From sequence record MW822011: a DNA stretch of 64,000 nucleotides, one strand, 5' to 3'. The notes under the pieces were generated by a model. The model searched no databases and was not told the DNA's origin. It worked only from the letters and a program-made list of their open reading frames with translations. Made by a program: the position numbers and the translations under genes. The stretch is from Shigella phage TB004. Below are positions 5,483 to 7,012 of the stretch, piece by piece (the first letter of the stretch is position 1; every line of letters begins with the position of its first letter).

Positions 5483-5555
5483 TGGGAATTAGCCAAGTTG
5501 GTAAGGCACTGGATTTTGATTCCAGGATGCAAAGGTTCGAGTCCTTTATTCCCAG
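5483..5555 (+). tRNA. tRNA-Gln (anticodon UUG)
   Basis: cloverleaf; acceptor tgggaat/attccca; anticodon loop ttTTGat; GGTTCGAGTCC T-arm. Confidence 0.8.
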
Positions 5556-5556
5556 C

Positions 5557-5643
5557 GCGAGAATGGTCAAATTGGTAAAGGCACAGCACTTAAAATGCTG
5601 CGGAATGATTTCCTTGTGGGTTCGAGTCCCACTTCTCGCACCA
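5557..5643 (+). tRNA. tRNA-Leu (anticodon UAA)
   Basis: type II tRNA with long variable arm; loop cTTAAaa; ends CCA. Confidence 0.8.
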
Positions 5644-5648
5644 AATTT

Positions 5649-5722
5649 GCGGATATCGTATAATGGCATTACCTCAGACTTCCAATCTGATGATGTGAGT
5701 TCGATTCTCATTATCCGCTCCA
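5649..5722 (+). tRNA. tRNA-Gly (anticodon UCC)
   Basis: acceptor gcggata/tatccgc; anticodon stem tcaga/tctga, loop ctTCCaa; CCA encoded. Confidence 0.85.
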
Positions 5723-5732
5723 ATTTAATTTA

Positions 5733-5806
5733 CTCCGTGTAGCTCAGTTTGGTAGAGCGTCTGCTTTGGGAGCAGAATGTCGCAGGTTCAAATCCTGCCG
5801 CGGAGA
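5733..5806 (+). tRNA. tRNA-Pro (anticodon UGG)
   Basis: acceptor ctccgtg/cgcggag; loop ttTGGga. Confidence 0.8.
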
Positions 5807-5808
5807 CT

Positions 5809-5898
5809 GGAGGCGTGGCAGAGTGGTTTAATGCACCGGTCTTGAAAACCGGCAGTCGCTCCGGCGACTCATAGGTTCAAATCCTATCGCCTCCGCCA
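5809..5898 (+). tRNA. tRNA-Ser (anticodon UGA)
   Basis: type II tRNA; acceptor ggaggcg/cgcctcc; loop ctTGAaa; CCA encoded. Confidence 0.8.
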
Positions 5899-5903
5899 GT
5901 TTT

Positions 5904-5976
5904 GCTGATTTAGCTCAGTAGGTAGAGCAACTCACTTGTAATGAGAAGGTCGGCGGTTCGATTCCGTCAATCAGCA
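5904..5976 (+). tRNA. tRNA-Thr (anticodon UGU)
   Basis: acceptor gctgatt/aatcagc; loop ctTGTaa; CCA encoded. Confidence 0.8.
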
Positions 5977-5977
5977 C

Positions 5978-6055
5978 CAAGGCCCTGTAGCTGGAAGGTT
6001 CAAGCAAGCGACTCATAATCGCCAGATGGTGGTTCAATTCCACCCAGGGCCACCA
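5978..6055 (+). tRNA. tRNA with CAU anticodon (Ile, lysidine type, or Met)
   Basis: acceptor ggccctg/cagggcc; loop ctCATaa; CCA encoded. Confidence 0.7.
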
Positions 6056-6068
6056 AATTAAGAATTAA

Positions 6069-6155
6069 GGGGAGTTATCCCGTAGAGGTAGCGGTGTGGA
6101 CTGTAAATCCATTGTCATTGCGACTCGGGTGGTTCGACTCCATCACTCCCCACCA
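6069..6155 (+). tRNA. tRNA-Tyr (anticodon GUA)
   Basis: type II cloverleaf; acceptor ggggagt/actcccc; loop ctGTAaa; variable arm resembles E. coli tRNA-Tyr; CCA encoded. Confidence 0.65.
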
Positions 6156-6159
6156 ATTT

Positions 6160-6234
6160 GGATGTGTAGCTCAGTGGTAGAGCAGTTGACTGTTAATCAA
6201 TTGGTCCATGGTTCGAATCCATGCATGTCCGCCA
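6160..6234 (+). tRNA. tRNA-Asn (anticodon GUU)
   Basis: acceptor ggatgtg/catgtcc with two G-U pairs; loop ctGTTaa; T-arm GGTTCGAATCC; CCA encoded. Confidence 0.6.
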
Positions 6235-6359
6235 AATTTGTGACAACTGTCACATTAATATCTACTTGACGCGATTATAGGGTTGAACTGATCACTCTTC
6301 TCTTAATTTCGTGTGAAGACATCTTGATTGTTGGAGTAGGTATTAATGTGAACTAATTA

Positions 6360-6436
6360 CGGGGTGTAACTCAATTGTATAGAGTAGCGGTCCTCTAAAC
6401 CGCAGGTTAAAGGTTAGAATCCTTTCACCCTGGCCA
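6360..6436 (+). tRNA. tRNA-Arg (anticodon UCU)
   Basis: acceptor cggggtg/caccctg; loop ccTCTaa; CCA encoded. Confidence 0.75.
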
Positions 6437-6457
6437 AATTATTGAGAGAATAATATT

Positions 6458-7012
6458 ATGAGAAGTGATGTAGACTGGGACCAAATTAATTTGGCTATAA
6501 AAGCTGGATTAATATACCGTGGTAATTTTGAAATAACACAAGAACTAATTGAAAATGTTGCTTTTCTTAAAATAACAGACAAGAAAAAATTCTTTTCTAT
6601 GACTAAAGCCAAACGCTTGTCAATATGGAAAGTATTTTGTAGGACTGCCGCCCTAAATCTTTTGAAATTTAAAGATGAATTTGATATAGAAAAAAGCTAT
6701 CGGCAAGCTTTCGTATACATAATGGTAGATACTACAAATCCTAATTATTATAAAATAGGAAGAAGTATAGAACCCGATGTTAGAGTTATAACAGCAAATA
6801 CATTTTCACCGTTTAAAAGTTTTAAAATAGTATCATTTAGATATTCCCAGGATGCAGTAGAACTTGAAAAATATATGCACAGCATTTATAATCAGGACCA
6901 TATAAATGGCGAATGGTTTTTCTTTCATGACATAAGTTCCATAGTTAAAAAATTAGATACTAAATCTACACAATTTGAAATACCAAATGAGAAGCCGGGT
7001 CGCTACCGGTAA
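6458..7012 (+). CDS. T5orf172 (GIY-YIG-like) domain protein
   Basis: 184 aa; C-terminal motif FVYIMVD...YYKIGRS...ELEKYMH...GEWF typical of T5orf172 domain. Confidence 0.55.
   Translation: MRSDVDWDQINLAIKAGLIYRGNFEITQELIENVAFLKITDKKKFFSMTKAKRLSIWKVFCRTAALNLLKFKDEFDIEKSYRQAFVYIMVDTTNPNYYKIGRSIEPDVRVITANTFSPFKSFKIVSFRYSQDAVELEKYMHSIYNQDHINGEWFFFHDISSIVKKLDTKSTQFEIPNEKPGRYR

Follow-up and report, generated by a model that had tools for sequence, protein, structure and literature searches.

The window analyzed here, a stretch of 64,000 nucleotides (nt) from Shigella phage TB004 (sequence record MW822011), includes the unit from which this T4-like coliphage of the Tequatrovirus type transcribes its transfer RNAs (tRNAs) and stable RNAs; the unit has the common form that lacks segB. 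Within this unit, an open reading frame (ORF) of 184 amino acids is an insertion of ~549 base pairs (bp) that separates the terminal CCA of tRNA-Arg from the stable-RNA gene rnaD. Comparison at the sequence level makes it probable that the ORF is a free-standing homing-endonuclease-type gene residing at the boundaries of tRNA-Arg(UCU) genes, an analogue of segB in function and not its homologue. The ORF is an uncharacterised addition to the GIY-YIG/T5orf172 mobile nuclease genes of phage tRNA clusters, and the tie of its family to tRNA-Arg does not appear to have been described before. An earlier, model-made reading of the same letters, hereafter the original prediction, placed a 184-residue T5orf172-domain protein after tRNA-Arg, as borne out below, and overlooked (i) rnaD and rnaC downstream, (ii) the nature of the ORF as an insertion, and (iii) the conserved structured element in the spacer upstream of tRNA-Arg.

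The insertion and its empty site

The insert is bounded by a direct repeat, CCAAAT, at 6434-6439 and 6983-6988, and the sequence ATACCAAATGAGAA at 6980-6993 is a copy of the T4 Arg/rnaD junction (all features are collected in Table 1). The frame reads 26 nt into rnaD, with the last 8 codons and the stop codon (7010-7012) lying inside that gene. The empty site is observed in SA21RB and T4, in which rnaD begins within 1-3 nt of the tRNA-Arg CCA end, and blastn homology to ESh27, KpV477, and X20 begins at 6434 and stops at 6985. The region 5400-7400 is matched by 1075 phage records, mostly Tequatrovirus at 90-98% identity, only 10 of which cover the ORF, most relatives being devoid of it. As far as position 6350, the nucleotide identity of the window to SHBML-50-1 and SA21RB is 96-98%; homology to the ORF-less relatives breaks at about this point, where AACT stands in place of tRNA-His. 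A hairpin sequestering the ribosome-binding site, as in other T4 homing-endonuclease genes, was sought and only weak folds were obtained (z about -0.7 to -1.0).

Full-length homologues retrieved by tblastn comprise (i) those of the Straboviridae genera Gaprivervirus (94% identity to the window ORF), Mosigvirus (78%), Jiaodavirus (58%), Winklervirus (57%), and Muldoonvirus (55-57%), and (ii) those of the T5-like Demerecviridae Epseptima-, Tequinta-, and Myunavirus (39-42%). In the Straboviridae loci examined, which cover these five genera and Tequatrovirus, the ORF starts ~20 nt past the 3' end of a tRNA gene that is Arg(TCT) in every case except ESh27, in which Arg is missing and a CAT tRNA takes its place. 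In the T5-like phages, the ORF lies upstream of tRNA-Arg(TCT), with its final 33-39 nt overlapping the tRNA. In each examined locus in which a tRNA or stable-RNA gene comes next, the ORF reads into that gene, namely rnaD, tRNA-Thr, or tRNA-Arg. A precise presence/absence polymorphism at a fixed intergenic site is not confined to the T4-like phages: RN29, compared with the ORF-less phC11, carries a 540-bp insert exactly between ...TTAAAAAT and GCTCCG (+1 of tRNA-Arg), and a minority of 13 of 404 records matching the tRNA-Arg neighbourhood of RN29 cover at least 80% of it, i.e., include the ORF segment. Escherichia phage Gostya9 (MH203051; locus L012, 1477-2043) harbours a homologue that overlaps tRNA-Arg and is unannotated in GenBank; the possibility that this copy is a decaying pseudogene was rejected, the ORF being intact at 188 residues. 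A search of IMG/VR for loci related to the ORF returned a single one, VR26.

The closest relatives of the insert do not coincide with those of its surroundings. The segment comprising tRNA-Arg and the ORF is 93-95% identical to that of Gaprivervirus VR7 and VR26, against about 80% for the upstream genes; when rnaD and rnaC are included, identity to VR7 is 93%, against ~80% for trna.3 and trna.4 upstream. When phage records are ranked by their match to the adjacent 12 kb, none of the identified ORF-bearing phages is in the top 25, and the rnaD alleles assort independently of the ORF.

The protein and the case for homing

The C-terminal domain of the protein has a GIY-YIG α/β fold. A Pfam test (PF13455/PF10544) matches MUG113 (37.2 bits, cutoff 22.3, E = 4.5e-9) and T5orf172 (27.7 bits, cutoff 20, E = 4e-6) over residues 85-155, and the T5-like and Klebsiella-phage homologues likewise match both models above the gathering score. 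In the same database GIY-YIG proper (PF01541) stays below threshold, at 13 bits versus a cutoff of 22.6, and NUMOD3 gives no match. The motifs conserved down to 39% identity are VYI (Y87), YKIG (Y98, K99, and G101), R109, E137, H141, and GEWF (E152), with the Tyr, Tyr, Arg, and Glu positions of the GIY-YIG type invariant across homologues that share 39-98% identity. The ratio of nonsynonymous to synonymous substitution rates (dN/dS) is about 0.1 (0.07-0.14), indicating purifying selection. The N-terminal domain comprises ~75 residues forming four helices and includes the invariant stretch AALNLLK. No sequence relative with a solved structure was found at E ≤ 10. Two further candidate identities were set aside: a diverged segB, rejected on the BLASTP comparison with SegB (E = 0.57), the missing NUMOD3, and the subthreshold PF01541 score; and a defence or anti-defence annotation, for which PADLOC gave weak domain-level matches only (the nuclease domains of PDC-S57 and PD-Lambda-1).

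The T5orf172 proteins are a GIY-YIG subfamily whose members in phage ICP1 behave as homing endonuclease genes (HEGs) whose nuclease activity requires a conserved Glu; T4 itself encodes no T5orf172 genes (PMC10448857). The window protein resembles the HEGs of ICP1 and T5-like phages in its Pfam T5orf172 domain with the conserved Glu, its sporadic distribution, and its location beside conserved genes. It differs from the T5orf172 HEGs described in PMC10448857 in carrying a private 75-residue helical N-terminal domain instead of zinc-finger repeats, and in the location of its family at tRNA-Arg boundaries, whereas those genes lie near terminase, ribonucleotide reductase, and capsid genes.

A second point of reference is SegB, the tRNA-cluster homing endonuclease of T4, which recognises the DNA of the tRNA-gene T-loop and cuts after CCAR (PMC2330249). 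Both are genes of the GIY-YIG nuclease superfamily inside a tRNA precursor transcript, and both are present or absent among close relatives with flanking tRNA genes swapped along (PMC2330249). In both, the stop codon adjoins or falls within the stable-RNA or tRNA gene that follows, and therefore RNA processing would truncate the mRNA in either case. Besides these likenesses, the two proteins show no sequence homology and a reversed domain order, the T5orf172/MUG113 domain being C-terminal in the window protein and the GIY-YIG domain of SegB being N-terminal and accompanied by NUMOD3; furthermore, the window ORF follows Arg, whereas segB is placed between Ile and Arg.

According to the preferred interpretation, a selfish gene of ~549 bp would have inserted into the few bases between the tRNA-Arg CCA end and rnaD, encoding a protein with a T5orf172-type GIY-YIG nuclease in its C-terminal half and, presumably, a DNA-recognition module in its N-terminal helical half. 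The protein would cut the ORF-less allele of a co-infecting relative at or near the tRNA-Arg gene, and repair from the ORF-bearing genome would copy the ORF together with its flank, including the linked tRNA-Arg allele, with loss of tRNA-His, a process equal to SegB homing in T4. Since the ORF would be transcribed inside the tRNA precursor, processing of the tRNA-Arg 3' end may cut 21 nt before the start codon, and processing of the rnaD 5' end may remove the stop codon, paralleling the proposal made for segB (PMC2330249).

Several observations weigh against this interpretation. The distribution of the ORF is incongruent with genome relatedness and points to cross-lineage transfer, but such incongruence is weak evidence for homing because T4-like genomes are generally mosaic. 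The N-terminal domain has no relatives outside the ~180-residue family among 1.84 billion representatives, apart from a few low-complexity matches, and received no fold assignment; the candidate of a shared DNA-binding module was rejected for this domain, as it is confined to the family of the ORF itself. No CapR/DUF723/DUF4397 zinc-finger module was found in the protein, which has one Cys (Pfam, E ≤ 1), whereas almost every T5orf172 HEG in the 2023 survey of Barth et al. has such a DNA-binding module (PMC10448857). The family corresponds to PHROG 5032, annotated as 'unknown function'. In addition, the tRNA-Arg gene beside the ORF of the T5-like phages is almost identical to that of ORF-less phages, and therefore, if the nuclease target lay within the tRNA gene, self-immunity would have to come from elsewhere.

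The lack of a recognisable sequence-specific DNA-binding module also speaks for the idea that the ORF was once mobile and has since lost its cutting activity, persisting as a DNA-binding or regulatory remnant that hitch-hikes in a recombination-prone tRNA region. The UniProt names of its relatives, which read 'T5 Orf172 DNA-binding domain', and the status of T4-like tRNA regions as hot spots of insertion and deletion with several unrelated small ORFs would agree with this idea. We nevertheless judge it unlikely, given that all catalytic positions of the GIY-YIG type are invariant across the whole range of identities, that dN/dS remains about 0.1, and that clean insertions of identical size at tRNA-Arg boundaries in two phage families argue for an active insertion mechanism.

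The tRNA-Arg(UCU) gene that precedes the ORF is itself unusual. Its anticodon loop reads CCUCUAA (C33), its T-loop UUAGAAU (A56), and its D-loop AAUUGUAUA (U19, standard numbering); C33 replaces the near-universal U33 and U19:A56 replaces G19:C56, a rare combination that would make it an unusual elongator tRNA. The minimum-energy fold is the canonical cloverleaf, and the tRNA-Arg of Mosigvirus AV110 has compensatory changes in three stems with C33, U19, and A56 kept, which argues that the tRNA is under structural selection. At an identity of at least 95%, the allele was found in only 15 records, all 15 carrying the ORF. Its T-loop DNA, GGTTAGAATCC, departs from the motif GGTTCRANTCC required by SegB (PMC2330249), and immunity of the tRNA gene to SegB or to its own linked nuclease is a matter of speculation. 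The ordinary alleles (U33 and C56) accompany the ORF in KpV477, X20, Muldoon, and the T5-like phages. It is conceivable, though doubtful, that the T5orf172 gene and the divergent tRNA-Arg(UCU) move together as a single cassette, in which the nuclease recognises canonical tRNA-Arg-gene DNA at the boundary and the carried tRNA-Arg, with C33 and the re-paired U19:A56 tertiary contact, serves as a functional, cleavage-immune replacement. Such a cassette would travel through Straboviridae and Demerecviridae by eliminating a tRNA gene and putting its own copy in place.

A gene of benefit to the phage would likewise be expected to show strong purifying selection and the constant proximity to tRNA-Arg, a further point against a purely selfish element. 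The ORF could accordingly encode a domesticated or accessory T5orf172 protein working with tRNA-Arg(UCU), the two genes spreading as a cargo module, for instance in counter-defence, where the C33 tRNA-Arg would escape a host anticodon nuclease and the protein would act on DNA or RNA in the same pathway. The adjacency to tRNA-Arg(UCU) in 13 of 14 loci, in two phage families and on either side of the tRNA, the low dN/dS, the restriction of the window-type allele to ORF-bearing records, and the probable functionality of that allele, since its cloverleaf is kept through compensatory changes, all speak for such a role; in the literature, phages defeat tRNA-targeting defences by means of tRNAs that are present in additional copies or have a changed anticodon loop (PMC10264068, PMC11464382, PMC11555353), and domesticated T5orf172 proteins, such as CapR and Odn, exist (PMC10448857). 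Set against this, most phages have tRNA-Arg without the ORF, ESh27 has the ORF but no tRNA-Arg, the ordinary tRNA-Arg alleles listed above are paired with the ORF as well, and no defence system targeting tRNA-Arg(UCU) was linked to the module in this analysis. Furthermore, GIY-YIG enzymes are DNases. On balance, an accessory module is rather unlikely, and the homing-endonuclease-type gene is preferred.

The tRNA cluster, the stable RNAs, and the neighbouring genes

The transcription unit comprises, in order, a conserved promoter region, nine tRNA genes starting with Gln, a 105-nt spacer RNA, tRNA-Arg, the inserted ORF, rnaD, rnaC, and a terminator (Table 1). ARAGORN calls exactly ten tRNA genes on the plus strand at 5483-6436, in agreement with the original prediction, which had listed Gln, Leu, Gly, Pro, Ser, Thr, Ile(CAU), and Arg together with Tyr and Asn. 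Nine of the ten match the Rfam tRNA model at 59-73 bits. The first nine (5483-6234) follow the T4 order with two extras, Tyr and Asn, and identity to T4 is 93% from there to roughly position 6000; the upstream ORFs match T4 trna.2-4, which flank the T-even tRNA region on one side together with ipI. The T4 cluster has, as the original prediction stated, eight tRNAs, in the order Gln...Ile, segB, Arg, rnaD, and rnaC. The absence of segB from the window cluster, also predicted, is confirmed by the finding that 6458-7012 is the sole real ORF in 5400-7300.

Table 1. Features of the tRNA and stable-RNA unit in the window, with positions counted from its first letter
Feature	Positions	Strand	Basis or description
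tRNA-Gln	5483-5556	+	ARAGORN
tRNA-Leu	5557-5643	+	ARAGORN
tRNA-Gly	5649-5722	+	ARAGORN
tRNA-Pro	5733-5807	+	ARAGORN
tRNA-Ser	5809-5898	+	ARAGORN
tRNA-Thr	5904-5979	+	ARAGORN
tRNA CAU (Ile2-like; ARAGORN CAT)	5981-6055	+	ARAGORN
tRNA-Tyr(GTA)	6069-6155	+	ARAGORN
tRNA-Asn(GTT)	6160-6234	+	ARAGORN
Perfect palindrome TGTGAC-N4-GTCACA	6239-6254		also reads TGTGA-N6-TCACA (CRP consensus half-sites)
Structured RNA candidate, 105 nt	6248-6351	+	18-bp outer stem, three-way junction, near-invariant core GGGUUGAACUGAUCACUCUUCUC...CGUGUGAAG
tRNA-Arg(TCT)	6360-6436	+	ARAGORN; Rfam 59.3 bits
Inserted unit, ~549 bp	6437-6985	+	21-nt leader with GAGAG Shine-Dalgarno sequence, then 176 codons
ORF, 184 amino acids	6458-7012	+	four-helix N-terminal part 1-75; T5orf172/MUG113 GIY-YIG-like nuclease domain 84-156
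rnaD (T4 species 2 stable RNA) homologue	6987-7106	+	106/119 identical to T4 rnaD
rnaC (T4 species 1 stable RNA) homologue	7113-7251	+	138/139 identical to T4; fold z = -4.6
Terminator-like hairpin GCCCCUUCC-GAAA-GGUUGGGGC, then U run	7294-7325	+	sequence; ends the tRNA/stable-RNA unit

The two extra tRNAs had been proposed with the reservation that they might align to the T4 stable RNAs C and D. Comparison with T4 places both stable RNAs elsewhere, at 6987-7251, and downstream of the start of the ORF in either case, so this reservation falls away. tRNA-Asn scores 72.6 bits on the Rfam tRNA model. The type II tRNA-Tyr reaches only 34 bits, and on the Rfam tRNA-Sec model, and its homologue is annotated as 'tRNA-Pseudo-GTA' in one GenBank relative; it is nonetheless regarded as a genuine tRNA because a five-sequence alignment including Klebsiella-phage and Vequintavirinae homologues displays all parts of the cloverleaf, 8 pairs of which show compensatory changes. 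For the CAT tRNA, the predicted Ile(CAU) identity is partly upheld: ARAGORN itself labels the gene Met, whereas its acceptor stem, GGCCCUG, is that of T4 tRNA-Ile, and the Ile(CAU) identity is therefore plausible.

A cluster of ten tRNAs without segB is an already known and by no means unusual layout, the T2L/RB1/RB3-type region having been published in 2008: these phages lack segB and carry extra tRNA genes (Brok-Volchanskaya et al., PMC2330249), including the tRNA-Asn gene that is the preferred cleavage site of SegB (PMC2330249). A published analysis credits 24 of 84 Tequatrovirus reference genomes with ten tRNAs (PMC10236363), the Tyr-Asn segment is present at a coverage of at least 80% in 418 phage records, an eleventh tRNA, His, is frequent between the spacer and tRNA-Arg in close relatives, and teqskov has six tRNAs. 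T2L, RB1, RB3, and hundreds of Tequatrovirus clusters share with the window the order Gln-Leu-Gly-Pro-Ser-Thr-CAU, extras including Asn, then Arg, rnaD, and rnaC, as well as the absence of segB. Compared with the ten- and eleven-tRNA Tequatrovirus clusters, the window differs in (i) the lack of tRNA-His, (ii) the divergent tRNA-Arg allele, and (iii) the T5orf172 ORF between Arg and rnaD.

Mobile ORFs seem to settle preferentially in phage tRNA clusters. SHBML-50-1 has an unrelated ORF of 116 residues at the position of the window ORF, and an ORF of 114-116 residues (PHROG 3355, unknown function) lies directly 5' of rnaD in relatives (loci L002, 2623-2973, and L013, 2042-2386). Karamvirus ZX13 carries a segB-like gene of the GIY-YIG plus NUMOD3 type after tRNA-His (locus L052, 1430-2044). 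An ORF of 171 residues between trna.2 and tRNA-Gln in LF82-9, SHBML-50-1, and SA21RB (981-1496 there) is missing from both the window (5386-5482) and T4.

The roles of rnaC and rnaD, which both end downstream of the 184-residue ORF, are still unknown (PMC3014915). A near-consensus match to a sigma-70-type promoter at 6864-6892 (TTGAAA-17-TATAAT, 11/12) lies inside the ORF ~95 nt 5' of rnaD; it could be an embedded rnaD/rnaC promoter or a chance match, 5 such sites being found in the region versus 6.3 expected. The hairpin that closes the unit aligns with the annotated rho-independent terminator of OL960580, and a simple terminator scan did not call it. Immediately after the terminator, the ~1.6 kb at 7366-8977 have no match in the 25 best-matching phage records and form another variable island, in which the ORF at 7366-7746 has a Pro/Lys-rich tail. 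Upstream of the cluster, two neighbouring ORFs, 3804-4088 and 4149-4457, both start with MKTFKEFINEA, which we take to resemble the capsid-targeting leader of T4 internal proteins, and the ORF at 3282-3737 is presumably gene 57B, a member of the 2H-phosphoesterase family also known as Acb1.

The candidate spacer RNA and the significance of the locus

The spacer between tRNA-Asn and tRNA-Arg measures 125 nt (6235-6359) rather than the 120 nt first given, and comprises a structured element found in 355 phage records of Tequatro-, Karam-, and Jiaodavirus and one Vequintavirinae group. The element is always directly flanked by tRNA genes: Asn precedes it in Tequatrovirus and Gln in Karam- and Jiaodavirus, with His on its other side in all three genera, and in the Vequintavirinae phage W70 it is framed by Gly and Gln. 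It lies directly 5' of tRNA-His in most carriers, of tRNA-Gln in W70, and of tRNA-Arg in the window. The outer stem in relatives extends into the first 3 nt of tRNA-His (GUG), and the window retains GUG although His is deleted. The RNAalifold structure has 33 pairs, and compensatory double changes are seen in 10; 96.5% of cells are paired, versus 37-54% with slid partners, and none of 500 shuffles reaches the observed value. The single-sequence fold has z = -3.6, and a covariance model scores 94-126 bits on the plus strand and at most 21 bits on the minus strand. The invariant G-U pairs and this strand asymmetry argue for an RNA read from the sense strand, with the covariation evidence being moderate because only about four independent lineages contribute.

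Searches for copies or counterparts elsewhere were negative within their scope: Rfam 15 gave no match at E ≤ 1 in the region search and only noise (E ~1-4) with a 141-nt query; E. coli genomes contained no copy and GTDB genomes chance word matches only; core-pattern scans of IMG/VR and metagenomes returned Tequatro- and Karamvirus-type copies only; and a literature search for the core sequence retrieved nothing. The spacer might plausibly serve as a stable RNA released by processing, or as a stem for RNase III-type processing. Like the T4 stable RNAs C and D, it is a structured stretch of the same transcript that is not a tRNA and has tRNA-type processing sites on either side; it differs from them in having no sequence similarity to rnaC or rnaD and in being absent from T4.

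The original prediction also singled out a palindrome in this spacer. Its position is right, but it is not special as a palindrome because the window contains 47 perfect 6-N4-6 inverted repeats (25±5 in shuffles); the 16-mer itself is found in IMG/VR mostly in unrelated contigs. The palindrome lies at the edge of the structured element, where its 3' half coincides with the start of the 5' arm of the outer stem. Read as TGTGA-N6-TCACA, it occurs once in the window against 0.06 expected, and TTGACG follows 11 nt downstream, then ATTATA, so that, in place of RNA structure, one could envisage a site bound by a CRP-type protein or a piece of an internal promoter that serves the tRNA-Arg subcluster. 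We consider this highly improbable. The 5' half of the palindrome is not conserved outside the Tequatrovirus-type phages, which argues against a CRP-type site: the copies in Karam- and Jiaodavirus and in the Vequintavirinae lack it, whereas the RNA helices show covariation; a promoter scan found no sigma-70 match there; and the invariant G-U pairs and strand asymmetry point to RNA. The glucosylated hydroxymethyl-cytosine DNA of T-even phages would, moreover, probably hinder readers of the major groove.

The spacer is a candidate for a third 'stable RNA' in T-even tRNA operons, beside rnaC and rnaD; both it and the odd tRNA-Arg are modest leads. The presence of ten tRNAs without segB matters little, as it is a common and published state of T-even tRNA regions. 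The ~180-residue T5orf172 family of PHROG 5032, on the other hand, provides a second nuclease gene of tRNA clusters beside segB, unrelated to it. Phage tRNA repertoires matter for escape from tRNA-cleaving defences, and the family would offer a compact test system for GIY-YIG-type targeting of tRNA genes and for the reshuffling of phage tRNA repertoires.

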